Below, one piece after another: positions 301 through 53,020 of a DNA stretch of 64,000 nucleotides. Position 1 is the first letter of the stretch. Each line of letters begins with the position of its first letter. The position numbers and the translations under genes were made by a program. The stretch is from Phoronis australis. Lineage: Eukaryota > Animalia > Phoronida. The notes beneath the pieces are model-generated. The model was not told the DNA's origin and searched no databases. It worked only from the letters and a program-made list of their open reading frames with translations. The stretch is from contig NMRA01000395.1 of assembly GCA_002633005.1 (NCBI GenBank), positions 292,994-356,993 on the forward strand, read 5' to 3'.

Positions 301-1646
301 AGCACGAGGTTTATGCAATTGAACAATTTGGTTATCTACTGGATCTACCCTAGTACATATAGCAAAATAAATTTATGTATTGCGTTCATATGAAAGCTAC
401 GAGCAGAAACAGAATCTTTGATAATGGCCTCCTGTATTTGCATAAACTATACAAATTTATCATGCAGCAACTTGTAAACTGATTTCATTTAGTAATTGAC
501 CGTAAGAAGCTAGGTGCAATGATAGTTTACCTGTGATGCCTGATACTACAGCAGCTGCTATAAGCGTGAGTAAAATTTTGAACAGCCACTTAAATTTGCT
601 GACCGTGGAAACTTAGGTCAAAACATCAAAATAATCTGTCAGCAGCGCTTAATAAGGAAATTATGAGCAAAATTAGAATTTTGCATAATGGTGGCCTTAA
701 TTTGTATAATTTAAAAATGCTCAAGGGTTGTGAACGGCTACGCCCTATTTCATGGTCACTTAATCCTAGGCTACATGAAACATCAAAAAAAACCTTTTCC
801 AGCAAATTCAGGTTCAGCCCCCTGGCTCCCGATATATAGTTCATTTAGAGTTTCACAGGTTTTGGTCAACATAGAAGTCCAGTTTTAAGTTCGGGATGGA
901 AGTTTTGGTTGTGTGACTTAAATTTCAGTTGATAAACCCTAATTTATAATACTATAGTTTAAATCATTCTGTGTGTGTTATTTTGTATTTTTGTGGCATA
1001 TATCTATGAAGTGTTGGTTGGTTGCACTTAACTCATTTGGCTCTAATGCCGACTGCTGGAGGACCCTAATGCCAACAGGTGGCGTGGCGGTATATCTGAA
1101 TTCAGAGTCAGGTGCATGCAAACATGGTGCATTTTGTAAATTTGATTGGAGACAGTCCTACTTCTTGCTTTCATTTGAATTTTAGAATGTTAAATCTGTC
1201 TTGTGCTAAATCCGAATTCTGTTTCACCACCACCAGGCTGTGAGCCTGTTTAATATGAAAAGAATCCTATCCTAACAGCCTCACTTGGCTTGTGGAACTT
1301 GGCCAATTCCTCTGGTTTCATAACCTTAAAATACACTTATAGCTGATGTTATCGTTCTCAGTCAGGGAGGCTTATAGCTAAATGGTGGTCAAAATGAACT
1401 ACACATTTTCTGTTTCTTGGCATCTGTCTAATAACTCTTCAATATAAATACCTGTAGTAATAATTGTGTGGCTGTGGTGATGTCTAGTGCTATGTGCTTT
1501 TGCAAAATTTAAATTGATTTTCTACTGTATTTACTATGGTAGTAAGGGATAGTATTAATGTTTATTGACAGATGTAGAAGTCCGGTAATTAGGGTATATT
1601 GCTTGTAGTCAGCATTTATCAGTGAAATCTTGAGTGAATTTTACAG

Positions 1647-1780
1647 CCCCTGAGACTGTACGGCAGTTCAGTGTCACTGTTGTGAATTACACTTGTGTCC
1701 GTGTGTCATGGTCTGCTCCATTAGAAAGAGGTCTGAATGCTCCTGAGTTGGTGTACTTCATAGAAGGAAATAGCACAAAG
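1647..1780 (+). CDS. R3-type receptor PTP exon, first half of an FN3 repeat
   Basis: ttacag|...AAG|gtgagc, 134 nt, phase 1->0. Encodes PETVRQFSVTVVNYTCVRVSWSAPLERGLNAPELVYFIEGNSTK, an FN3 'VSWxxP..Y' pattern. Confidence 0.85.
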
Positions 1781-1997
1781 GTGAGCTGGTCATGTTTTAA
1801 AATGGGGCAAAGGTGAGCTGGCTATGTTTTCACTGACTGCAAACTTGTTAATGTTATGCAGGACCATTTAGCTAAATGTCTAGAATACTACAGACCTTAT
1901 TTCAGCAAAAGTATAATTTCCTGAAAGTAAAGATTGCTTAGAATTTGATTTCTTAATTATATACCAATCTCACATTGAATAGGTCGTGTGGCCATCC

Positions 1998-15202: not shown

Positions 15203-16141
15203 GACTGACGTCATCAAGAGTGAAAATACAATACTTAAATGAGCACGCGCAATAATCGCACGTTCAACAAACCGCATTGTACTGTACTTACACGCTACGA
15301 AAAATAAGACACATAATTTCCATAAAAACGATATCTTAATTCAGTGAAATATTTCTCTCATGTCCTCTTACTTGTAAATCACCGATCTCCAGTTTGAATG
15401 CGGGTATCGTGTCGTCAGGATCTTTGACTTGAGAATTATATTCAGTTACCAGTGGTAACCTACTTTAGCAGACGATAATTTCCCGGTCGAAGCTTAGCGT
15501 GAAAAAAACGTGTTTTAAGCTATAATAGTTGGTAAATCTTAATTTACCAATTCAATTTATTTCTATTATATTTAAGTTTTCAATTGGTTTTGAGTAAAAG
15601 CATTATTTGACAAAAATAGCCGGGCTTTTATTAAAAGGTCACGACCTCCGACCCCGGGCCTCTGACATAGAAAGTAGTTACAAAGCCGTGGAGAGTCAGA
15701 AAAGGTAAATCGATTCATTGCAATGTCTCTCGTTTAGTATGTGGTATAAATAGATTATTACATGTTCTCAGCCGTTATCCCCCTTATCTAGAGCCCTCGT
15801 GGATTTTGGAGAATTATCACCCTCGGGGCTAACGCCCCTCGGGCGATAATTTTCCAAAATCCACTCGGGCTCTTGATAACGGGGGATAACGACTTCGCCA
15901 TGTAATAATCTATATATATCTGACTTTCATTATCTGTCAGTATATTGTTTTTAGTTCCCAAAACTGTAGGTTCCCGTGGTGAAAGTGTGACTGTATAATA
16001 TTCATAAGTTAATTGTTTGTAATATGTTAATATAAACTTATCAACTTTGTTAACAATTTGTGTACTCGTCTGTCTTTTAGTGTAAGCTCAGCGATTGAAC
16101 ATAAAAGTGGTTTTGATGAAATTTGAGGTTGTGCTTCACAG

Positions 16142-16259
16142 GCTCTGAGAAGAGGATTAAACGAGAAACCAATCCTAATTTAAAGGATGTACTCATTGGA
16201 GAAGACACAGATTGTAATGGTGACTGTAATGGATACTTAAATGATGGTGCTAAGTATAG
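16142..16259 (+). CDS. R3-type receptor PTP exon, membrane-proximal ectodomain (CNGxL motif)
   Basis: ttcacag|GC TCT...TAT AG|gtaagt, 118 nt, phase 1->2. Encodes CSEKRIKRETNPNLKDVLIGEDTDCNGDCNGYLNDGAKY. Confidence 0.85.
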
Positions 16260-16629
16260 GTAAGTGTTGGGTAGTTGTTTATGTCTGATCATTGTAACAG
16301 ATACTTAAGTGATGGCTCTGGGTATGGATGCTCTGCGGTTATAATGGTTACTTAGATGGCGCCACTGAGTATAGGTAAGTGTTGGACAAATGCTCTTGAC
16401 CTTCTCATCTTACGAAATACTTTTATTTAGAAATCATAACAAGCAACCATTTTGATTAAAAAGCGATCTCTTTTATACAAGGATACTATTATTATAATTT
16501 TGTGATTTTACGCAAAACTATCGTGTAATTAGCACTTGTTGCTGTTTTTAAATAAATTATTAGTAAGTGGACACTAATATATCAGACTTATACTAGATGC
16601 TTGGCATAAGGGAGGGTAACTCATTATGG

Positions 16630-20317: not shown

Positions 20318-21715
20318 ATGACCTTTCACAAGTTATGCTGTTGGTTAAAGTGAAGGCATGACCTTTCACAAGTTATGCTGTTGGTTAAAGTGAAGGCATG
20401 ACCTTTCACAAGTTATGCTGTTGGTTAAAGTGAAGGCATGACCTTTCACAAGTTATGCTGTTGGTTAAAGTGAAGGCATGACCTTTCACAAGTTATGCTG
20501 TTGGTTAAAGTGAAGGCATGACCTTTCACAAGTTATGCTGTTGGTTAAAGTGAAGGCATGACCTTTCACAAGTTATGCTGTTGGTTAAAGTGAAGGCATG
20601 ACCTTTCACAAGTTATGCTGTTGGTTAAAGTGAAGGCATGACCTTTCACAAGTTATGCTGTTGGTTAAAGTGAAGGCATGACCTTTCACAAGTTATGCTG
20701 TTGGTTAAAGTGAAGGCATGACCTTTCACAAGTTATGCTGTTGGTTAAAGTGAAGGCATGACCTTTCACAAGTTATGCTGTTGGTTAAAGTGAAGGCATG
20801 ACCTTTCACAAGTTATGCTGTTGGTTAAAGTGAAGGCATGACCTTTCACAAGTTATGCTGTTGGTTAAAGTGAAGGCATGACCTTTCACAAGTTATGCTG
20901 TTGGTTAAAGTGAAGGCATGACCTTTCACAAGTTATGCTGTTGGTTAAAGTGAAGGCATGACCTTTCACAAGTTATGCTGTTGGTTAAAGTGAAGGCATG
21001 ACCTTTCACAAGTTATGCTGTTGGTTAAAGTGAAGGCATGACCTTTCACAAGTTATGCTGTTGGTTAAAGTGAAGGCATGACCTTTCACAAGTTATGCTG
21101 TTGGTTAAAGTGAAGGCATGACCTTTCACAAGTTATGCTGTTGGTTAAAGTGAAGGCATGACCTTTCACAAGTTATGCTGTTGGTTAAAGTGAAGGCATG
21201 ACCTTTCACAAGTTATGCTGTTGGTTAAAGTGAAGGCATGACCTTTCACAAGTTATGCTGTTGGTTAAAGTGAAGGCATGACCTTTCACAAGTTATGCTG
21301 TTGGTTAAAGTGAAGGCATGACCTTTCACAAGTTATGCTGTTGGTTAAAGTGAAGGCATGACCTTTCACAAGTTATGCTGTTGGTTAAAGTGAAGGCATG
21401 ACCTTTCACAAGTTATGCTGTTGGTTAAAGTGAAGGCATGACCTTTCACAAGTTATGCTGTTGGTTAAAGTGAAGGCATGACCTTTCACAAGTTATGCTG
21501 TTGGTTAAAGTGAAGGCATGACCTTTCACAAGTTATGCTGTTGGTTAAAGTGAAGGCATGACCTTTCACAAGTTATGCTGTTGGTTAAAGTGAAGGCATG
21601 ACCTTTCACAAGTTATGCTGTTGGTTAAAGTGAAGGCATGACCTTTCACAAGTTATGCTGTTGGTTAAAGTGAAGGCATGACCTTTCACAAGTTATGCTG
21701 TTGGTTAAAGTGAAG
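20318..21715. repeat. Perfect 40-bp tandem array, ~35 copies, ending at an N
   Basis: Unit atgacctttcacaagttatgctgttggttaaagtgaaggc, with no variant seen and no spacers. Confidence 0.98.
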
Positions 21716-21809
21716 NATTATGCTATGGAAACAAGAAAAAATTGGCAACAATCCATACAAGCAACAAAGCATATGTCGTAGCATCACCTAGACTTTGTGA
21801 AAAGCTGTA

Positions 21810-27470: not shown

Positions 27471-27552
27471 GCCAATTCAAGTGTTTCAGTTTGTCAAGTA
27501 TGTTGAAGAAATGCACAAAGATACAGACTTGAAATTTTCTGAGGAATACAAG
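27471..27552 (+). CDS. R3-type receptor PTP exon, entry to the PTP domain
   Basis: atttcag|G CCA...AAG|gtagat, 82 nt, phase 2->0. Encodes PIQVFQFVKYVEEMHKDTDLKFSEEYK. Confidence 0.9.
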
Positions 27553-30115: not shown

Positions 30116-30206
30116 AGACTTAAGTTACTATCATCAAAAAAGTCGCTGACAATGGCAGAACTGCAATCAAATCGTCCAAAGAACAGATACATCAACATCT
30201 TGCCGT
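30116..30206 (+). CDS. R3-type receptor PTP exon, pTyr-recognition (KNRY) loop
   Basis: ttcttcag|AGA...CCG T|gtaagt, 91 nt, phase 0->1. Encodes RLKLLSSKKSLTMAELQSNRPKNRYINILP. Confidence 0.93.
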
Positions 30207-31792: not shown

Positions 31793-32786
31793 TCACCAGG
31801 AGTTCAGGAAGCCTGGGGAAGAGGAAAAAGCAGACATGTGAATGTAGTTTTTGAGTGCGTCAGATTTCCAGCGCCCCATGCGCTGGATCACCGGTTCAGG
31901 GACGCCACGGCTGGCCGCTGAGGTGGCGGCGCAAATGCGAAAGCTATGTAACGTATAAGACTTGGTGTTGAGCCCTACAAAGGAAACCACTTTAGTCAAC
32001 ATGGAGTTGAAGCAGGAATGTGTAACCGGTGATCCACTGAGGTGTTGGAACAAGGGGCCAGGAGAGGGCTGAAAAGTAGACAAGTACAAGGTTAGGGCAG
32101 CTACTGGGCAATGGGGAGATTGGATGGACAGAATCGTAAGTGAGACTGGTCCCGAGCTGTGCTTGAAGGTACACATATTGATGACCACGGAATCGCCCGA
32201 GGGGGGGAAGACGACGTCGCTGACCTGTATGACATGGGAGGAGGGCGAGGAGGTGACTGTGAATTCACCTACTCTGAGAAAGGCATGGAAGGCTAGGAGG
32301 AACATAGCACGTGCAAGAACTGAGTCGGCAAAAGAGCCGAGTGCAGAAGGGCAGGCGTCAAACAAGTGGTGAAGCAAAGCTGAAGTAATGGGCATGCGTG
32401 TGTCAGAAGAAGGGTGCAGATTGGAAGCGCCTTTGATGTTTTTTGATGAAAAAGGAGGAAGTGGGGTCAGGGAGGTTGTAAAGCTTGTGGACAAAACTAA
32501 TGGCAGAGACACAGGACTGGATAGACGAGATACTAAGGCCAGATTCGATGAGATGAGAGATGTAGTGGGCCAGGAAAGAGGTATTAATGGGCAAGGTGAG
32601 CGGAGAGTTGTTAGAGAGGTGAAACTGAGCAAGGTTATGCAGGATGCGGGTGTAGGACTGAAGAGTGGAGGGGGCCAGGGAAGCCCGGAACAGTCTGGTC
32701 ACTCTGTCAGGAGGTGCGGCGGGATAGGTGTCGGATGAAGGCTGAGCCAAGAATCCTGGGAAAAGGCGACCTGAAAGTTGAAACAA
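31793..32786 (-). pseudogene. Tyrosine recombinase of the Ngaro element (frameshifted)
   Basis: N-terminal SLAPSTLQSY...; catalytic part AFHAFLRVGE...HSFRICAAT...MGRWKSDALKNYI. Confidence 0.9.
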
Positions 32787-34290
32787 GAAAGTGCATCAGC
32801 TATGATGTTAGTGTAGCCAGGGATATGTTTTGCCCGAAAATGAACGTTGAAGGTAAGAGCGGAGATGACCAGACGACGAACAAGAGACATGATGGGGGAG
32901 TGGCGGGAGGAGGTCTTGTTGATAATGTCAACGACGGCACGGTTGTCGCACAGGAAGAGGATCTTGTGGTTGGCGAGCTTTGGTCCCCACAGCTCTAGCG
33001 CTATGAGGATAGTAAGGAGTTCCTTGAAGGTGATGTGATGGCGTTGCAGGTGCTGGGGCCATGGGCAGGCAAACCAGGAAGCTCCCAATGTCGCAGCAAA
33101 ACCCCCCATTGGAGCCCGCAACATCAGAGTACAGTTTGATGGTGTCTGAAGATGTCCACTAATCGAATAGGAACAGTGTTTTCCCATTGAAGCCTCGGAG
33201 AAAGATGGACCAAGCCTGAAGGTCCGCTCTAGCTTCTTTATTGAGAGTGACGAAGTGGTCTGGTCTCGAAATTCCGATGGTAAGGTTGATGAGTCGGCGC
33301 AGGAAGGCGCGGCCGGGCACGATGACAGAGCAGGCGAAGTTTAGTAGACCAATGAGGGATTGGAGGTCGCAAAGAGTAACCTTGCGGTGCTTCTGGAAGT
33401 CGAGGAGGAGGTCGGAAGCTCTGTCCACCTTGTCCTGTGGAAGAGAAGCAGTCATGGTAGCAGAGTCGAGGTAAATGCCATAAATGGTGATGGAGGTGGT
33501 CGGCTGAATTGTCTTGTCGTGGTTGGTAGGGATGCCTAAGGAGTCGCAGAGTGATATGAATGCGGCGAGGTCTCGGGAGCATGTTGGCGAGGATGGGGGG
33601 CCCACGAAAAAGAAGTCATCGAGGTAGTGCAAAACGCCGACGACCTTCAACTTGGTTTCCAGGATCCATTGAATCACAGAACTGACCTTCTCGAAGATGT
33701 TGCAGCTGGAGGCACAGGCAAATAGCAGGCAACTGTCGTAGTAGAAGTTGTTGGCCCAGAATAGGCCTAAGAGATGGTAGTCGTCAGGGTGTACCGGTAC
33801 AATGCGAAAAGCGTCCTTGATGTCAGTCGTAGCCATGAGGGAGTGGCGCCCAAACTGTTGAACCAGGCGGATAGCGTCCGTGATGGATTGATACTGGACT
33901 TGGGAGAATTGAGGGGGTATGAGGGAGTTAACTGAGTTAGAGTGACGAGATGGATATGTCAAGTTATGAATGAGACGAAAACTGTTAGGGTGAGATTTAG
34001 GGATGAGGGCAAGGGGTGACGTAGAGAAATGGGGGAATGGAGGGGATGGGAAGGGACCAGCATAGCGACCCAGCAGAATCTCAGTCTGTATTTTCTGAAA
34101 GGTAACTTCGGGATTACGAAGAGCTGATGGGTGGTTGGTGGGGGATTGGAGTGACAGATCGGGGAGGTGCCAAGTCTGAAACCAAAAGAGAAACCATTGA
34201 TAAGCTCCGTAGTCGAGAGGGAGTCATAACCTGAAAGGAGAGGTTTAAGTTTGCTTACTTTTACGGGTGTTGGGATACCTGGCAGGTGGG
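32699..34290 (-). pseudogene. Reverse transcriptase-RNase H of the Ngaro element (frameshifted)
   Basis: DIKDAFRIVPV, HYLDDFF, LQSLIGLLNFA, KELLTI..A, FLCDNRAVV and HIPGYTNIIADALS. Confidence 0.9.
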
Positions 34291-36480: not shown

Positions 36481-37701
36481 TATAACGTGAATGAAAAGAT
36501 TGATTAAAATCAAAAATGGGACTTACCACGAAAAGGACGAAGTAAAGCAGAGGAACGAGAAGTGGCAGAGCGTCGCACCCGAACGGAGTAAGGGGTCAAG
36601 GGTCAAAAGGAAACGAAAAAATGCAAACAAAAAAAATGCAGAGAACAAACGTAGGTCTTGTAGACGACGAGGTATGTGGCTGAATGAGAGAGACCACGTT
36701 GAACTGAACAAAGGAAATATGGGCCACCAATCAGGTGTCGCATAGAGAAATGTATGAATACAAAAGTAGGCCCTTGAGGCTACAAATAGAGATGAGTAAT
36801 GCAAACTAAACCCTAAGGGTTGGTATCGAAATAAATAAAGAGACAAGTGTCAAAATAATGACGATAAATGCATTTAACAAGTTAAATTTAATTAAATGCA
36901 AGTGATTATTGCTATGCTATCTGCATTAATTTATTTATTAATAGTATCCACTTGTGGTTTCGACTTACCATTGTCCATTGTCAAGATATTCGAGATTTTC
37001 TTATCACACGTCTAATTCTTATATTGACTATATCCTCTTTGTACTTTTGTTGTTCTATTATAATCATGCTACAGCTTACATTTTTCACATGATTGCCATA
37101 AAATTTATGTAGTTTAAAACATGTACATACTAGTTAAAGGCTCGGACACAAGATGGCACTTTGAAAATCACTTGCAAAGTTTTAACTCCATAATTCTTTC
37201 CCTGAACCTTTTAAAATTGGGGTGTGGATTGATCTCCTTCAAGTATCTGGAGTGTGCTTGGTTTCTCGATACGACTTACCTTCTTTTTGAAGTTCTTTGA
37301 GACTTTCTGATTTGGTGACTGATCCTTTCCAGTTTTGTTGGTTTATCGTTTACTGTACACTGACATCGTGGATGTCTGAGTTGTTGCTGTTGGTGTTTTA
37401 GTTCCGTTGTTGACCTTACCTTTTGGTTTTCCGTTCAATTTTGCCTAATGTTTCTCCTCAGAGCACTTTCATTTTTTGATTTTTAAGACTATAGCACCAG
37501 TATAGCCTTTGGGGTGATGTGAAGTACACTTGGAAAATGTGCTAGGTAGGCCAAAGAATGGTTAGAAAGAAGAATTTTAATTGTCATACTATTTAAAACC
37601 ATACTGTCACGTGAAATTAAGTTCATTTTATCAGTTTTGTGACATTTGTTAAAAGTGTCTAAAAGTCGCGTGACATTTCCAAATGTCATCTCTTTTTCCA
37701 G

Positions 37702-37778
37702 TTGACAGCTCCCGAGTTAAGCTTCTACCGACTGATGACGATGAAGGTTCAGACTACATCAATGCAAACTACATGCCA
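37702..37778 (+). CDS. R3-type receptor PTP exon (DxxRVxL...DYINANY)
   Basis: tttccag|TT GAC...CCA|gtaggt, 77 nt, phase 1->0. Encodes [26 protein letters not shown]. Confidence 0.95.
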
Positions 37779-37962
37779 GTAGGTGTCACTCATACTCTAT
37801 TTTATGTGTCTGTGTCACAGATCAACACAAACTACATGCCAGTAGGTGTCACTCATACTCTATTTTATGTGTCTGTGTCACAGATAAACACAAACTACAT
37901 GCCAGTAGGTGTCACTCATATTCCGTATTATTCGTTTTTGTCATACATCAATGCTAACTTAA
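37758..37962 (+). repeat. 63-bp tandem repeat (~3.2 copies) straddling a splice donor
   Basis: Units start at 37758, 37821, 37884 and 37947; GTAGGT at 37779, 37842 and 37905. Confidence 0.95.
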
Positions 37963-37981
37963 TGTCACCATTGGTTTTTAG

Positions 37982-38149
<168 letters not shown>

Positions 38150-38288
38150 TGAAAATCTTTGAATTTTCATCTGATACAATTTTAGTTGAACAGTGTTTCA
38201 CTCATGAATTGGCATCTGAATATGTTACTTTTGAACAAATAAGTGTAATTTTTTATGTCTGTTCACGACTCGTGGGTTTGTTTTTCAG

Positions 38289-38411
38289 GTGAAGTGTGAA
38301 AGGTACTGGCCAGATGACACAGAGCCAAAATTTTACGGAGACCTCATTGTTCAAAAACGTTCCGAATCTGTCTTGTCTGACTACACAATAAGGATACTTG
38401 ATATTAAACTG
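38289..38411 (+). CDS. R3-type receptor PTP exon (KCxxYWP)
   Basis: ttttcag|GTG...CTG|gtgagt, 123 nt, phase 0->0. Encodes VKCERYWPDDTEPKFYGDLIVQKRSESVLSDYTIRILDIKL. Confidence 0.95.
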
Positions 38412-39678
38412 GTGAGTATGCTCACTGATGTGTGTCGAATTTTGAAGAAATGAGTAATTATTCAGTGTGTGGTACAGTTGGTTTATTGTCAGCTAGGATT
38501 TGCTTAAGATTATTCATTATCTGGCAGCCAAATTAAGCAGTTATTCAATCCTAACAATTTCAAGACTACAATAATTAAATTCAGTAAGTTGAAAGCTTGT
38601 TTATTTTGAATTTCAAACTACAGTTGCTTGCCATGGGTTCTCAAGCCTTGTTCTCTTTGTTGAAAAATTCAGTGAAGAAATATATTTTTGAAAGCTACAC
38701 TGATTGCAAGTTGACTGTCTTAAAATATTATAAATCTTGCACATTTTCAGTGTATTTGAAGGAATCAAATTTAATTTACTTTTTATTAGTGTTTTTGCTA
38801 ATAGTTGACCCGTAAGGCTGTGTGTTTGTTGTGCCCAGATGTTCGTACTAATCACATGATTGCATTTTTCCTAAAAATTCATGATTTTTTGGAAATCACC
38901 AGATTTTTCATAAGCACAGTCATGTTACTTTTTTCTCATGGAACTATATTCTGCAAAAGTGTGTCTGGCTTAGAGTTCATCTGTCAAAAATCCGTAGTTT
39001 TAAGGAATGTTGAAGGCTTCATGAGTCCTCTTGCTAAAATGTCTCAAAAGCTAATCCCAGATACACTTTTTTGTAGCTGATAGAGTAAAGAAATTGGGCA
39101 GGTTTCTTGCAAAATTTTTTTGTTAAGTGGAACTGGCGGCGATCTCTGAAGAGTGTTTCTGAGAAAACGCAGACACACGATACCAAATGATCTTGGCGTT
39201 ATTTTTGTGGATTAAAAAGATTCCAAGATCATCAAGGATTTTAAAATGGTTTTATTGATCAAGAAATCTGATCTTTGGTTATGAAAGTATCCCAGTTGTC
39301 TTCAATCTGATCAGATGTTTCTGAGATCATAATAATTTAAAAAATTGGCCAATTTTTACAACTCCCCTGGGGTTGCTGCAGCCTAATCTTCATAACTGGG
39401 CAAGATGGGGATTAGGTGTCGGATGTTATATCTGCACTGGTGAAGTCAGTTGTCATGGAAACGAGTTGTTTACAGATCAAATGTTAAGAGACATCAGTAT
39501 TATATTAGCATTAAAAATGGTTTTAACTTGGCATGCAAGTTGAATAGTTTGGCCACATAGTTTGAAATGAGAGATATGTATCATCGCTGACATGAAGATG
39601 ATGATGAGTGATGAAGTGAAACCAAGGTCTTTCTCACCAGCTGCTAAATCATTAAGACCTTCTGCTTTGTTTGAACAG

Positions 39679-39830
39679 GGACAGTGCGAAAGAATTGTGA
39701 AACACATTCACTTTGTTAAGTGGCCCGACTTTGGCTGTCCAAGTAGCACTGAGCTGTTACTCAATTTTGTACTTAACGTTCGCACTCACTTGACTCGCGA
39801 TTCTCGTGGACCAATCTGTGTTCACTGCAG
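39679..39830 (+). CDS. R3-type receptor PTP WPD-loop/catalytic-Cys exon, alternative A
   Basis: tgaacag|GGA...TGC AG|gtattc, 152 nt, phase 0->2. Encodes GQCERIVKHIHFVKWPDFGCPSSTELLLNFVLNVRTHLTRDSRGPICVHC. Confidence 0.92.
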
Positions 39831-42414
39831 GTATTCATGTTGCATGAGGACGAATTGTGTTCTAGTTATGATGCTTTTTTGCATTTTGTTTATAATTCAG
39901 AACTTTAACACAACACTGCTATTATGCTTTACATGTAGTCACACAATCGCCATATGAGAACTATTACTATTGAATGAAATTTTAATTGGGAAGCATGGAA
40001 TCTTGAACCCTTTTCTGGTGAAACAAATTTTTGATGCAAGTTAAGTTGTTTATTGTTTATTGTTGTGCCATTTGTTTTAAAGGTAAATACCTTATTATCA
40101 GATAGTTTGCATGATAGCAGTCATTTGTATCATTATGTTGTGAGTGTTGTCTATACTGTTACTTCAGCTCTATGTCTAGCATGATGTCACTATGACTGGC
40201 TCTCATGGCTCTTGGTGGTTCTTACCTGCATTCTACCTGTCTGTTTGAAGCGCATGTTCTTTGAACTACAAAATAGAGCCTAGTATGATTACGGTTGGTA
40301 TTGACCTTGTTAAAATAACCTCAAGCGGTTATGTCCATTATTATGTTTTGGCGGTATATGTTGTGTCATTCCCTTGCTGTGTACTGTGGGTCAGCTGACA
40401 CAACTAGCATCAGATGTCACCAGTAACGTTTGGACTGATTTCAGCTTGTTGTTTGTTAAAAATACAGCAAAGTTCAGCTTCTAAAAAACAGCAGTTTCAA
40501 TTCTGTGGGAATGCACTAACTCTAGGACCCCAGGGTCTTAGACTAACCAAGGAGTGTACACTCCTTAGACTAACTGCGCAATTTTGGTTTAAAACAGGCT
40601 GTAGCCGCTTGAGACATGGCAGTATGACAGTTCACAGGATGAATTTGTTTTTAGTTATAGCCTCATTGTTAGATTATCAGGTACCTTTGTTTCTTCCAAA
40701 CATTTGCTGTTGAGTCAAGGTGTCAATTTTATCATTGAGTCTCTGACTGGCGGCTTCTGGAAACACGTCACAACTTGTGGAAACACGTCACAACTTGTGG
40801 AAACAAGTCCCTTCAAGAGGAAACAAATGCGTAGAAACAAGCCCCTACTTGTGGAAAAAAGTCCCAGTTCACATGGAAACACGTCCCCTCATGTGGAAAC
40901 AAGTTTAAACATGTTGAAACAAGATGTGTGCAGATGGTGATGTTAGAGAAAACAATGACTGGGCTCAGTGAAGTCTGTGGGCAATGAGGAGGTCTCTTAA
41001 AAAGGTAGTGCAGGGTTGTAATGACAAATTAAATGCATAGACTGATTTTTGGATCGTGCCATTCTATAAGGTTGTACCAATTAGAGGAAAAAATCTTGTG
41101 ATGACGGAGTAGAAACCAGGTGATGGTAGAACACGTACATTGACCATACCATCCAGTGAGGTTGTACCGATTTGGAGGCATCTTGTGGTGTTTTTATGTA
41201 ACAGAGTCCAGGTAAAGGTAGAATACACATTTTACAGTGGGGTTGTATCTGAGGGACGCACCTTGTGGTGAAATCATAGAATCCAGGAGAATGTAGAATA
41301 CACACAGTGATGGTATCATCCAGTGAGGTTGGACAGATTAGAGGGAGGAATCCTGTGGTGTGACGTGAATGCAGTGTAGATGTGCCGCCCTTAGATCCAT
41401 GACATTTGGGAAGCCTGTGTTGAGCACGTGGTGTTAAAGATAGTACAACTAAAAAGATGCGAGAGAGAAAAGTTTGAAGCTAGAGTAGATGATCTATGTG
41501 CATCACCAGTCATCTTTGTGTAAATGACATTATTTGTAGACTGGTTTGGATAAGGAAAGTAACAGTCGCTTGTTGTACTTTATATGGATGTGGTTTCAGC
41601 TTGTTAAAGCTTTTGAAAGTGTTGTTGTTTACGATAAGAGCATCACAATTTACATTGCTCTGGCAGGAGCAAGTTTTGAATAAATTACTGATAGAGTAAA
41701 CCTTTTCAGTGACTCAGAATATGTTTAGTGAAGTTCAGTTTACTGTTACAGCCTTTTAAGATGAATGATGATATGTTGAATAGACCAACATACAATGTGA
41801 GACAATGGAAGCAGCTCCAAGCAAATCATGAAATAGCATATCCGTATTTGTAATTATAAATTATACACTTTAGTTCCAGGTTTGTAAATATTATGATATA
41901 TTATGATATATTATGATATATTCGATAACAGTGCACTTGAATAGGGCCGTCCCGAATTACATGGAGATAGAACTCTATTTTATCCTGGAGATAAGAAAGC
42001 ACTTGACCTAGTTTTGGAAATCAGGCAGATTTTCGTGTCTCTCATTAATGTCGTGAAGGTGAAAAATTTCAGATCACGCATCCCCATTTATCAAACTTTT
42101 TAACGTCGGAGTTGCAGCCCACAGAACATCTGCAGTAACATTTCATTGGCATTGAAAAGATGAATAGAGTAATGCAACTGGTAAAAACTTGTAAAGAATC
42201 AGACAATGACAAATAACATGTGGAGGCAAAAGATGTGCCTGATGGATGTTTACAGGATTGTGGGTAAATACTGCAAGATTCAACTGTCACTGTATAATCT
42301 GGGATGGCCCTATTGAATTTCACTAAATAGCATGTCTTCAAAGCATGATGTAGTCTCAACAGTAATGCATTAGTGTAGGGGTCACAGCCTGTCACTTTGC
42401 TTTTTTGTGCGGCC

Positions 42415-43038
42415 TACTCCAAAACAATGTGACACATGGTCTCAATACAGTAAGATGTCTCCCTGCTCCAAAACAGTGTGACACATGGTCTCAATAGACC
42501 AAGAAGTCTCCCTGCTCCAAAACAGTGTGACACATGGTCTCAATACAGTAAGATGTCTCCCTGCTCCAAAACAGTGTGACACATGGTCTCAATAGACCAA
42601 GAAGTCTTTCTGCTCCAAAGCAGTGTGATACATGGTCTCAATAGACTAAGATGTCTCCCTACTCCAAAACAGTGTGACATGGTCTCAATAGACTAAGATG
42701 ACTCCCTGCTCCAAAACAGTGTGGCATATGGTTTCAATAGACCAAGATGTCTTCCTACTCCAAAACAGTGTGACATATGGTCTCAATAGACTAAGATGTC
42801 TCCCTGCTCCAAAACAGTGTGACATATGGTCTCAATAGACTAAGATCTCTCCCTGCTCCAAAACAGTGTGACATATGGTCTCAATAGACCAAGATGACTC
42901 CCTGCTCCAAAACAGTGTGGCATATGGTTTCAATAGACCAAGATGTCTTCCTGCTCCAAAACAGTGTGACACATGGTCTCAATAGACCAAGATGTCTCCC
43001 TACTCCAAAACAGTGTGGCATATGGTCTCAATAGACTA
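42415..43038. repeat. 49-bp tandem repeat, ~12.5 copies
   Basis: Unit ctccaaaacagtgtgacacatggtctcaatagaccaagatgtctccctg, with variants. Confidence 0.95.
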
Positions 43039-43625
43039 CAAAAGTGTTTGCAGCCCCTGCTTTAATGGAACCTTATGCAAACTTAACCCTTACTGTGTCT
43101 TGAGATGCATGCATACATTTTCTTTAAATGATTTCTTATCATCGTATCATTTGCATGTATATTTACTCCTAGCAAGTAAGCCGTGACTCAGAATGATCAT
43201 CTGAGTTTATGTAGTCACTTTTGTATGTTATTGTTGAGCAGTCATGTTAGTCAGTCTAAGCTATCATATTGGCTCAATAGAGTTGAATAAGCATTGGTCT
43301 CGAATTAATGCCAAGAGTTGAAAGCACCATGCTCAATTGATTTGATGTTAGTTAAAAAAAGTTAGGGATCAACACTTTTTTGTCAGTTCTGGCTATTGAA
43401 GCTACCCCTTGCGGTCAAATTGTGTCTTAAAGTTTGTACATTACATGGAGCTGATAACTACCCTTGGAACATACTGTCTGTGATGCACTCTTGTTTGAGA
43501 ATGTTTGCTCTGCTGATGGTAACCCCAACCATTGTGTGTGTTACACAGGTATGTTTACCAGTCCTGTACATTTCTGGCTTCACCTCGTCAATTAATATGC
43601 ATGGTGTCTCATTGCTTGTGTCCAG

Positions 43626-43777
43626 GGCTCGTTGACACGTACCATCAAACATCTTAACTTCACTGTATGGCCTGACTTTGGCTGCCCCGAAGGCACGACT
43701 GCACTACTTAACTTTGTTAAGGTTGTTCGTTCACACATGAAGCCAGACAGCTCCAGCCCAACTATCATACATTGCAG
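43626..43777 (+). CDS. R3-type receptor PTP WPD-loop/catalytic-Cys exon, alternative B
   Basis: gtgtccag|GGC...TGC AG|gtacct, 152 nt, phase 0->2. Encodes GSLTRTIKHLNFTVWPDFGCPEGTTALLNFVKVVRSHMKPDSSSPTIIHC. Not present in the supplied ORF track. Confidence 0.92.
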
Positions 43778-44302
43778 GTACCTCTTGCTACTAAACTGAA
43801 ATCTACAAAACCATGTCAAAGCATATTGAACCACTCTATTTATTGCATATTGCAAGTTATGTTAATGTTTGACCTACTGCATGTTGCTTTTACTGACATC
43901 TATTGTTAACTTTCAAATGGAATATTTCCCTCTTTAAAACCTAAAATAATTTCAACTTGAACATCCATCTGAGCACACCGGGTCCATAAATTGCCAAATG
44001 CGACAAACATTTCAATTTATTGACTTAGTTTCATCTAGTACATCTCTTGAAACCATCTTTATGTTGTCGGTCAGACCTGAATTTACTTCAACTACTTCTA
44101 ACCTTTTGTTATTTGTTCCGTGATGTTGTGGTGTAGCAATATTGTATGAAGACTACTTCACATTTCATTTGCCATCCCTAAGTGATTAAGTCATGTTTCC
44201 TTTTGTTGCTAAGTATTGCTAAAACTATCTAGATTGTCTATTACGTCTAAAACAACACGAAAGCTTTAGTCTTCAGCATATTTTCAAAAGTTATTCACAT
44301 GA

Positions 44303-44686
<384 letters not shown>

Positions 44687-48466: not shown

Positions 48467-48551
48467 GACCAGTACATTTATATCCACGACTGCATCCGTG
48501 ATGTGTTACTGCAGAATGACGATAATGAGGAAAACATTTATGAAAACACAG
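48467..48551 (+). CDS. R3-type receptor PTP exon, domain end and YEN tail motif
   Basis: ttacag|GAC...ACA G|gttggc, 85 nt, phase 0->1. Encodes DQYIYIHDCIRDVLLQNDDNEENIYENT. A single PTP domain followed by a YxN tail is typical of the R3 subtype. Confidence 0.9.
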
Positions 48552-50332: not shown

Positions 50333-53020
50333 TCATACCTCGGCCAACACGATGGCTGACCTCAGTACTGGATCATCAGACGTTGCTTTACGGATGTTCA
50401 TCTTCTTGTCGTGAGTAACTTGCAGGCTTGTCTCGATTGACTGTACATGTAGTTGAACATCTTGGTCAGTTGAAGAATCTTTTAGGGCGAGAGGGCTTCT
50501 TGATAACGCATCACACACATGCATATCCTTTCCTGGGACATGTGCTGCTGTGACATCATATCTCATCAGTCTCATTAGAAGCCTCTGGCAGTGTAGGGGT
50601 ACTTCAACCAGGCTCTTGGAGTTGATAAGAGGGACAAGAAGCTTGTGGTTGGTATATATTGTGACATTGCTGCGCCCACAGATATAGCGGTCAAACTTTT
50701 TGCATGCCCACACACTCGCCAAAGATTCTTCCTCAATCTGGGCATACTTCTGTTCACTCTGTGTGAGAGTGCGAGAACAAAAGGCTATTGGCTTAAAAAT
50801 GCTATCCGGCTGTTGTAACAACACACCACCCAGACCATAAGAACTGGAATCAGCGCTTACAATAATTGGCTTTGTCACATCATAGTAAGACAAGACAGGA
50901 GTTGATGCAATAAGCTTTTAAATGCTTCTTCTTGGGACGCATCCCAAGTCCATTGGCGGTCTGACTTCAGTAGATCATTTAGTGGACCGGTGACAGAGTT
51001 CAGGTCAGGTAGATATGAACCAAGGTAGTGTACCATTCCCATGAACTGACGAACTTGAGTGACTGACTTGGACGGCTGCATTTGTAGGATGGCTGTAACC
51101 TTGCCTGGGTCGGCCCGTATTCCATTCTTACTGAATAGGTGACCTAGGAACTTCTGAGCTCTTGTTTCCTGTACAAGCATTTATCTTGGTTAAGCTTCAA
51201 GCCAGCTCGGTGAAGGGTTTCAAGGACCTTTGACAACCTAGCGTTGTGTTCGGCAGCATTCGCACCATACACCAAGATGTCGTCCATATACACAAACACG
51301 CCGTCCAGGCCCTCTAGTACTTCTAGCATTTTCCTCATGAAGATTTCAGGAGCAGAAGTGATGCCGAATGGAAGACGACGGAAACAATAACGCCCAAATG
51401 AGGTTATAAAAGTAGTTAAGTCCTGGCTCTCTTCTGCTAGAGGGATCTGGTAGAAACCACTCGCTGCGTCAAGACATGAGAAAATTGTTGCTCCCAGGAG
51501 TTTCGAAGTCACATCCTCTAGGGTTGGCAGGACGAATCTTTCTCATTGGATGTTCACATTCAACTTCTTTAGATCGTCACAGAGTCTGACTTTGCCCGTT
51601 TTTTTCAAAACAGGTACCATCGGGGTACACCACAGCGTAGGACGAGTTACAACCTTGATGATTCAAAGTTTGGTAAGACGGTCAATCTCCTCTTTCACTT
51701 TCTTCTCAAGTGGAAACAGAATACGTTGAGCTACGTTTAGGGCATATGGCTGGGCATTCTCTTTCAGGGATATCTTGACTGGGTCAGTATTGAGAAGTCC
51801 TATATCTTCAGTAGCGGAGTTAACTCGAACGATAAGGTTCATCTGACTGGCTACTCCCTGGCCAAGAAGACTTTCAACTTTCCCATCAACCACCATCACA
51901 CGAAAATGATAATTCTGTCCCTTGAACACAGTTCTTGCGATGAACTGTCCGCGACAACTAATAGGACTGCCAGGGCTTGACAGCTTAGCCTTGATATCTT
52001 TCAGAGGAGGTCTTGGCTTGATATTGAGATACTGGGAGTACGACATGATGGACACATCAGCACCGGTGTCTAGAATGTTTCTGAAGAGTTGCCCAAGGTG
52101 AGAGTCACCTCCCAAGCGGGGTCGTTATCACCACAGCTTACAACGCCTAGGAAGTAGTCAACATTTACTGCACCACAGAACTGATCAGCCTGTTGGTCGT
52201 CCTCCTCTTCGTAACCTTCATTGACTTTGTTCTTACGGCATACGGAGGCGAATTGACCCTGTTTCGAACAGAACCGACATATTTTCCCTCTGGCAAGGCA
52301 GACTTCAGACCCAGGGGATCTATGGACGTAACCACAATTAGGGCATTTCTTCTTCCCCGATTGCTTGGAGTTGGATTGGCTCTGACACTGGTGTGATGAT
52401 TTCTTGGACGATTTCTTTTTCTGACTTTTGCCCCCCTTTTTCACGAAACTGACAGATGCACCTTCACTCTGGTTAGACTGGACAAGTTCTTTGTATCGAG
52501 CAGTGTCTATGGCCTTTGACAGTGTTAGGCTTTCCTGTTCCATTTGAAGATCACACGACAACTCTTTGTCGGTCATCCCTGAGATAAGACGGTCTCGAAT
52601 ATGCTCATCTTCTTTTTCGCCGAAATTACAATGAGCTGCTAGTTCATGTAGACTTCAAACAAAACTTTCAACTGACGCATCCTGCTGTTGGCTACGTTGA
52701 CAGAATTTCGTTCTCTCATGGATAGTGTTTTACGTGGAACAAAATAGTCCTCGAATTTCTGAAGAACCGTATTGAAATCGTCTTTTGGGTCTGGTGGATT
52801 TGGCACTTCCGCTGTTGGAACAGGTGTTTCAAATTTGAATGACTTGAAGATGTGTTCGGCTTGACGACCCATCATATACACAAGTGCACAGACTTGTACA
52901 TCAGCTTTTTCATCCCTGATTTTCTCTAGAATGTAGTAACGCATAAACCTGATTTTCCAGTCTAGCCATGACGATGGTTTTGAGAAATCAAATGCTTCCG
53001 GTGCTTGATATTTAGGCATT
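50333..53020 (-). pseudogene. Gypsy gag-protease-RT-RNase H, fragmented
   Basis: ORF-track fragments 52639-53091, 52070-52576, 51663-52115, 51144-51512, 50875-51180 and 50333-50893 carry consecutive motifs. Confidence 0.9.

Follow-up and report, generated by a model that had tools for sequence, protein, structure and literature searches.

The 64,000-nucleotide stretch of Phoronis australis DNA considered here (contig NMRA01000395.1, positions 292,994 to 356,993 of the forward strand; hereafter the window, whose own numbering is used throughout) contains a gene for a receptor protein tyrosine phosphatase (PTP) that we class as R3-like. Inside its phosphatase domain, two neighbouring homologous exons, A and B, lie between a shared upstream exon U and a shared downstream exon D (Table 1). 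An initial annotation, made from the sequence alone, had described A and B as mutually exclusive exons of 152 nt in the same phase, and its coordinates, lengths, phases and ends all hold: each exon is preceded by AG and followed by GT, and frame 0 is open in both. Their neighbouring position, their lengths (152 and 152 nt) and their equal phase conform to a tandem duplication. The two share 81 of 152 nucleotides (53%) and, as had been counted, 26 of 50 residues; 16 of these 26 are written with different codons, and third positions are the same in 18 of 50 codons. By the Nei-Gojobori method pN is 0.37 and pS 0.82, which leaves dS not computable (pS > 0.75) and silent sites saturated. These values, and the retention of the pair in other phyla, bear out the earlier proposal of an old duplication kept by selection. 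A tblastn search with both peptides found no third copy in the window (next match E = 0.35), and the introns flanking A and B show no homology to each other.

Both exons match positions 131-176 of the Pfam Y_phosphatase profile (E 1.2e-09 and 1e-08) and align to PTP1B residues 168/169-215. The nine PTP-domain exons, with A or with B, yield an open frame of 293 codons that ends in the IYENT motif, whereas inclusion of A and B together leads to a premature stop at 43633-43635 and inclusion of neither to a stop at 44419-44421, the frame disruption that had been predicted. The 38411 end of exon U likewise stands, with the small correction that reads set its extent to 38289-38411 (123 nt).

Direct evidence for alternative use comes from four RNA runs under one species label (three of raw reads, 18-19% of each being read, and one contig set; no tissue labels), mapped on positions 37600-44650. 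The four junctions foreseen in the initial annotation, 38411 to 39679, 39830 to 44380, 38411 to 43626 and 43777 to 44380, are present in all three raw-read runs, with 2/7/2 reads for U-A, 13/8/9 for U-B, 10/3/6 for A-D and 24/10/5 for B-D; the U-B and A-D joints also occur in X1 contigs, from a second study. Reads within exons are from the sense strand, and none has a second possible placement. Beside these 99 listed junction reads, neither an A-B joint nor a U-D (skip) joint is listed, a joint being listed only with at least three reads per run at two starts. Thus, A or B is spliced between identical flanking exons and the two are mutually exclusive at the junction level, as had been claimed, with A accounting for about 30% (30 of 99 junction reads; 95% interval 21-40%) and B for about 70% (69 of 99).

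The assignment of the receptor rests on several features. R3 phosphatases are defined by a single PTP domain and a YxN tail (PMC5336234). In the window, five D2 queries found no second (D2) PTP domain in the 15 kb downstream, the three relatives that were scanned have one PTP domain each, and the YxN motif IYENT follows immediately 3' of the domain. The joined PTP domain is closest to that of Lingula anatina (72%), then Owenia (67%), then cephalopods. A quick tree of 31 rows, computed with the swapped segment excluded and with one row dropped, one long row misplaced and three outgroup labels presumed, places the gene apart from the LAR, R4 and R5 types and in a clade of 19 rows that holds chelicerate Ptp10D-like, mollusc, Lingula, Owenia and fish PTPRH-like sequences, with a Shimodaira-Hasegawa-like approximate likelihood ratio test (SH-aLRT) value of 98. 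The single domain, the tail motif and the tree grouping together assign the gene to the R3 (Ptp10D-like) receptor PTPs, in keeping with the initial annotation. In both isoforms the NRY, DYINA, WPD, HCSAGVGR and QY motifs are intact. WPDxGCP, with Cys for the usual Val, marks the protostome R3 clade, scallop and oyster B types having replaced this Cys (GTP, GIP); the WPD-loop cysteine of the clade could be redox-sensitive.

The same swap is annotated in other species. Among 30 clusters of relatives looked up, 18 of them with several members, five contain RefSeq isoforms of one gene that exchange exactly this segment: those of the brachiopod Lingula (XP_013387208.1 / XP_013387209.1) and of the four bivalves Mercenaria (XP_053390692.1 / XP_053390693.1), Mizuhopecten (XP_021372256.1 / XP_021372258.1), Saccostrea (XP_062589564.1 / XP_062589565.1) and Ruditapes (XP_060604249.1 / XP_060604252.1). 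These are predicted models from automatic annotation; over their full length, the differences within each pair are confined to one block whose borders are those of the window's exon. A sixth pair, from Mya (P0283/P0302), consists of partial models that may be paralogues and lends weaker support. The 13 other multi-member clusters show no exon pair, absence from an annotation not being absence from a genome; they come from Limulus, Octopus bimaculoides, Stegodyphus, Trichonephila, Babylonia, Centruroides, Potamilus, Dreissena, Crassostrea gigas/angulata, Mya (one cluster), Sinanodonta, Octopus vulgaris/sinensis and C. virginica. All compared cephalopod, gastropod, Solemya and chelicerate proteins carry the type of segment with a His four residues before the WPD Trp, and models from Owenia, unionids, Dreissena, Mactra and Crassostrea carry the His-less type. 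In the heterodont clams Mercenaria, Mya and Dreissena (P0283-P0322, P0085), many Ptp10D-like models lie on shared contigs, most of them His-less. A homologue search with exon A alone returned no candidate, and one with the cuttlefish domain was dominated by two-domain PTPs.

What does the swap change in the enzyme? The exon does carry the WPD Asp and the catalytic Cys, as the initial annotation stated; its description of a swapped active-site core needs one qualification, for the two exons have the same WPDFGCP and HC, with no exchange of the catalytic Asp or Cys, and the P-loop Arg is encoded outside the swapped segment, in the shared exon D. The differences fall in the strand that leads into the WPD loop, in the hinges of that loop, in helix alpha3 and in the loop that follows this helix. 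The two domains would be expected to fold alike. With the W presumed to be PTP1B 179, a register that agrees with the alignment to 168/169-215, exon residue 11 corresponds to PTP1B H175 and residues 13-14 to T177-T178. The His is present in exactly one member of all seven pairs, its partner having N, L, C, S or A. In a set of 68 other distinct PTP segments, 42 have H at the position, 22 have Q and four have another residue, these four being oyster B-type exons. In PTP1B, variants of T177 cause modest shifts in the loop equilibrium and the pH profile by way of a network that includes T178 and H175 (PMC8297725), and loop-graft chimeras and the allosteric control of WPD-loop motion have been reviewed (PMC12905499). 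On balance we expect that loss of the His, together with the changes in the T177/T178 hinge and in alpha3, would shift the balance between open and closed loop and hence turnover, pH profile or allosteric coupling.

Taken together, the data probably reflect an R3-like receptor phosphatase whose transcripts take up either of two old tandem exon copies, so that one receptor would provide two phosphatase domains with the same catalytic residues and differently tuned WPD-loop motion. Several points weigh against this reading: the share of A is alike among the three runs (24, 36 and 36%; p 0.46), no single read or listed contig covers U-A-D or U-B-D entire, joined or skipped forms with one or two reads could hide below the listing threshold, and Gln is frequent at the His position in other PTPs, so that the His is not essential. 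We regard it as unlikely, yet as the chief rival reading, that the pair is real and conserved but its isoforms are catalytically near-equivalent, the swap altering the surface on the alpha3 face and in the following loop and thereby partner binding, dimerisation, stability or substrate docking. The identity of WPDFGCP and HC in the window's two exons would fit such a function, as would the many differences on alpha3 and the next loop, where length variation is also concentrated, the longer loop after alpha3 in oyster and clam B types, and the effect of T177G in PTP1B, which is called modest (PMC8297725); however, the most consistent type-specific change, seen in 7 of 7 pairs, is the His beside the WPD hinge. 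The view that a single isoform matters, the other exon being noise of splicing or a duplicate in decay, could draw on the minor share of A (30 of 99 junction reads), but is very improbable: A is spliced on both sides in all three raw-read runs, the frames of both exons are intact despite saturated silent sites, and Lingula has counterparts of both types, so that junction reads and the relatives' isoforms already contradict it. Hardly credible, finally, is an assembly artefact in which alleles or paralogous genes, each with one exon, have been merged. While bivalves do have tandem families of this gene, and an assembly join near 21716 is probable in the window, where we could find no transmembrane exon, 53% nucleotide identity excludes alleles, reads that fit no second place link A and B to the same flanking exons, the interval 38289-44515 is free of N, and in five other species a single annotated gene has this arrangement.

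How old is the pair, and how often did it arise? In a tree of exon peptides (43 rows), the partner of A is the Lingula X1 type (96/92), and B falls together with Lingula X2 and Owenia (98/97); in the quartet of window and Lingula copies four sites sort by exon type and none by species; and approximately unbiased (AU) tests on eight rows reject a clade of A+B (p 0.036) as well as one formed by the two Lingula copies (p 0.004). A and B thus very probably correspond to the two Lingula copies, judging from the exon peptides. Since the two exons side with different Lingula copies, B together with Owenia, the tandem duplication likely predates the brachiopod-annelid split, which is Cambrian or older. 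Counting against so early a date are the exon-peptide alignment, of only 50 columns, the AU test on all 43 rows, which does not reject an A+B clade (p 0.25), and the effect of removing the His column, after which the grouping of A with Lingula is no longer starred while that of B is kept (96/90). Quartets of the window with bivalves favour lineage, moreover, and pairwise scores assign the clam copies to neither A nor B. For the bivalve pair, evidence for origin in the same duplication event is split. There is close to an even chance, if slightly less, that the exon was duplicated at least twice independently, once in bivalves and once in the line that led to the window organism, Lingula and Owenia, and that each line lost the His separately; this would concern the origin only. 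The 43-row tree requires two changes for the B label, WPDM is common to both scallop and both oyster copies, the compared cephalopod, gastropod, Solemya and chelicerate proteins show only His-type exons, and Fgfr offers a precedent for recurrent alternative splicing at one locus (PMC5703972). On the other hand, the AU test does not reject a single origin for the B-like exons as a whole (p-AU 0.33), and once the His column is taken out the 15 His-less exons all gather on one side of the tree, weakly (56/88) and together with two His rows.

As to how exclusivity may be kept, steric interference, which takes fewer than 50 nt from donor to branch point, is ruled out by an A-B intron of 3795 nt. 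Incompatibility of U2 and U12 sites does not apply either: every site is GT-AG, and none matches the U12 consensus. Both alternative donors are non-consensus (GTATTC, GTACCT). As to complementary docking/selector sites, for which the initial annotation had suggested searching the flanking introns, none of eight flank pairs beat shuffles (best 3 of 20), and the longest inverted repeats are 70-88% complementary. Frame incompatibility, with premature stops for both or neither, makes decay of the wrong products likely, and 60% of human mutually exclusive exon clusters have frame-incompatible lengths (PMC5740500).

A positive candidate is the motif UGCAUG, found four times in the four 300-nt flanks of A and B against 0.44 expected, and within 300 nt of just one of seven other exons. 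Two further copies lie at 43106-43157, about 500 nt upstream of B, and 6 of the 23 plus-strand copies of the window fall between 39841 and 43883. The presence of the motif beside both exons suggests Rbfox control; by the positional rule for Rbfox, with calcitonin exon 4 and egl-15 5B as precedents (PMC2777236), the positions are such that Rbfox would favour A and block B. The count was made post hoc, as one of four motifs counted, and the copy downstream of B would favour B, both of which tell against this assignment. We therefore offer only tentatively a scheme in which the choice would be cell-type-specific, Rbfox favouring A and blocking the branch point of B, while nonsense-mediated decay would remove mRNAs with both exons or neither. 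In its widest form, possible though rather doubtful, the duplication would have occurred in the lophotrochozoan stem and yielded a hinge/alpha3 switch that brachiopods, annelids and bivalves have retained from the Cambrian on, with Rbfox-expressing cells (neurons or muscle) making the ancestral His form and others the derived His-less form with different loop dynamics. If true, this would be a natural loop-graft pair and the first splice-tuned catalytic domain of a classical PTP in the literature searched.

Mutually exclusive exons inside a catalytic domain are known as such. The MAP kinases Mapk14 (p38alpha, CSBP1/2), Mapk9 and Mapk10 likewise use one of two homologous exons there, and in Mapk14 the choice affects activity and substrate specificity; these are kinases, however, and the available passages of that mouse survey of kinases and phosphatases name no PTP catalytic-domain case (PMC1431701). 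For classical PTPs, we found no published description of this swap in the literature searched, where subscription journals are thinly covered; within the same bounds this agrees with the initial annotation, which knew of no mutually exclusive catalytic exon in an R3 PTP. The R3 receptors PTPRB/J/H/O/Q and Drosophila Ptp10D resemble the window gene in their single PTP domain, YxN tail and phylogeny and in its candidate FN3-like and PTP_tm-like ectodomain pieces, and the available parts of the paper on them describe no exon pair, its main text lacking 'alternative' and 'mollus-' (PMC5336234). In vertebrate PTPRQ the WPD motif has changed at the level of the gene, whereas in the window gene variation comes by splicing and WPD is kept. 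Human PTPRS, likewise a receptor PTP, contains a cluster of mutually exclusive exons, which differs in that its listed peptides are of the FN3-type ectodomain and non-catalytic; the 10 supplementary files searched of the same study hold no entry for PTPRB, PTPRJ, PTPRO, PTPRQ or PTPN (PMC5740500).

Further parallels lie outside the phosphatases. Fgfr IIIb/IIIc and C. elegans egl-15 5A/5B are very old exclusive exons in a tyrosine-signalling receptor, too, and UGCAUG near the branch point represses one exon, as the candidate site before B might; there, however, the ligand-binding ectodomain is swapped and control by Rbfox or Esrp is proven, whereas for A and B it is inferred (PMC5703972, PMC2777236). 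The duplicated exon 10 of oyster alternative oxidase gives a lophotrochozoan enzyme two isoforms, one conserved and one derived, but is a terminal exon of an unrelated enzyme with demonstrated stress regulation (PMC5589949). Among phosphatases, a parallel is offered by engineered WPD-loop chimeras and point variants of PTP1B and YopH, in which altered loop surroundings on one scaffold change loop equilibrium and pH profile; those were made in the laboratory, while the A/B swap is natural, includes alpha3 and leaves the loop core identical (PMC12905499, PMC8297725). Known splicing of receptor PTPs changes ectodomains, linkers or tails; the A/B swap rebuilds the neighbourhood of the catalytic loop. 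The pairs amount to natural, long-selected experiments on one scaffold in several species, easily expressed, which bear on how non-catalytic residues near the WPD loop and in alpha3 set the rate, pH dependence and allostery of PTPs and suggest that evolution toggles the His that corresponds to PTP1B H175. For lophotrochozoan biology, they would bring to growth-factor signalling a splicing switch of great age, undescribed and so far unnoticed in automatic annotation.

Table 1. Exons of the R3-like receptor phosphatase gene and UGCAUG motifs around exons A and B, in window coordinates.
Feature	Position	Strand	Length, phase	Content or remark	Basis
Reading frame with probable FN3 exon	1634..1813	+			weak Pfam FN3 (E 0.019-0.06), weak tblastn matches
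Membrane-proximal ectodomain exon, PTP_tm-like	16132..16260 (approximate)	+			Pfam PF18861, relatives' profile
Exon opening the PTP region	27471..27552	+		FSEEY; predicted, sequence only	tblastn with relatives, splice sites
PTP-domain exon	30116..30206	+		NRY motif	splice sites; 3' end = loose X1 contig end before 37702
PTP-domain exon	37702..37778	+		DYINA	junction reads, X1 contig
PTP-domain exon	37982..38116	+		IAAQGP, FWRM	junction reads, Pfam
Shared upstream exon U	38289..38411	+	123 nt	KCxxYWP	junction reads, splice sites
Mutually exclusive exon A (His type)	39679..39830	+	152 nt, phase 0->2	strand, WPD loop, helix alpha3, strand, HC	sequence, Pfam, junction reads (U-A 11, A-D 19), one X1 contig
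UGCAUG	39841..39846	+		11 nt after A donor; candidate Rbfox enhancer	
UGCAUG	40108	+		+278 after A	
UGCAUG	43598..43603	+		28 nt before B acceptor, beside branch-point-like TTAAT; candidate Rbfox silencer	
Mutually exclusive exon B (Asn replaces His)	43626..43777	+	152 nt, phase 0->2	major form in sampled RNA	sequence, Pfam, junction reads (U-B 30, also X1 contig; B-D 39)
UGCAUG	43878	+		+101 after B	
Shared downstream exon D	44380..44515	+	136 nt	SAGVGRTG ... VQTE	junction reads, Pfam
Exon with PTP-domain end and YxN tail motif	48467..48551	+		IYENT	sequence, loose read ends

Outside the pair, the gene model is of varying firmness. The last exon begins at 48467, where it matches loose read ends behind 44516, and its end at 48551 was placed by sequence. 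The PTP_tm-like exon scores under the Pfam cut-off (E 0.0079), and reaches E 8e-10 with the relatives' profile within the scanned region. The gene likely starts before the window. Nothing convincing as a transmembrane exon was found between 18125 and 27470, while the relatives do have the helix. Where this exon would be expected, a perfect array of 35 x 40 bp extends over 20318-21716 and ends at a single N, and an assembly join near 21716 is probable. At 37765-37920, a 63-bp tandem repeat holds 2.5 copies of the end of the DYINA exon with its donor, of which the listed joint uses the first only.

Several repeats accompany the gene. The intron between the NRY and DYINA exons contains a DIRS-like retrotransposon on the minus strand (32406-34223; RVT_1 E 5e-07, tyrosine-recombinase SAM-like domain), and 3' of the PTP exons lie pol fragments of a long terminal repeat retrotransposon, also on the minus strand (51147-52124; aspartyl protease, RVT_1 E 3e-24). 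Within the A-B intron, a 32-nt insertion at 40303, seen in two reads each of X3 and X4, is probably an intronic polymorphism, and a 49-bp minisatellite of 12.8 copies occupies 42413-43036. The same intron holds, at 41930-42324, a repeat resembling a miniature inverted-repeat transposable element, with ends of 41 nt that are 73% complementary; as it attracts many divergent RNA reads on both strands, it is a dispersed, transcribed repeat.

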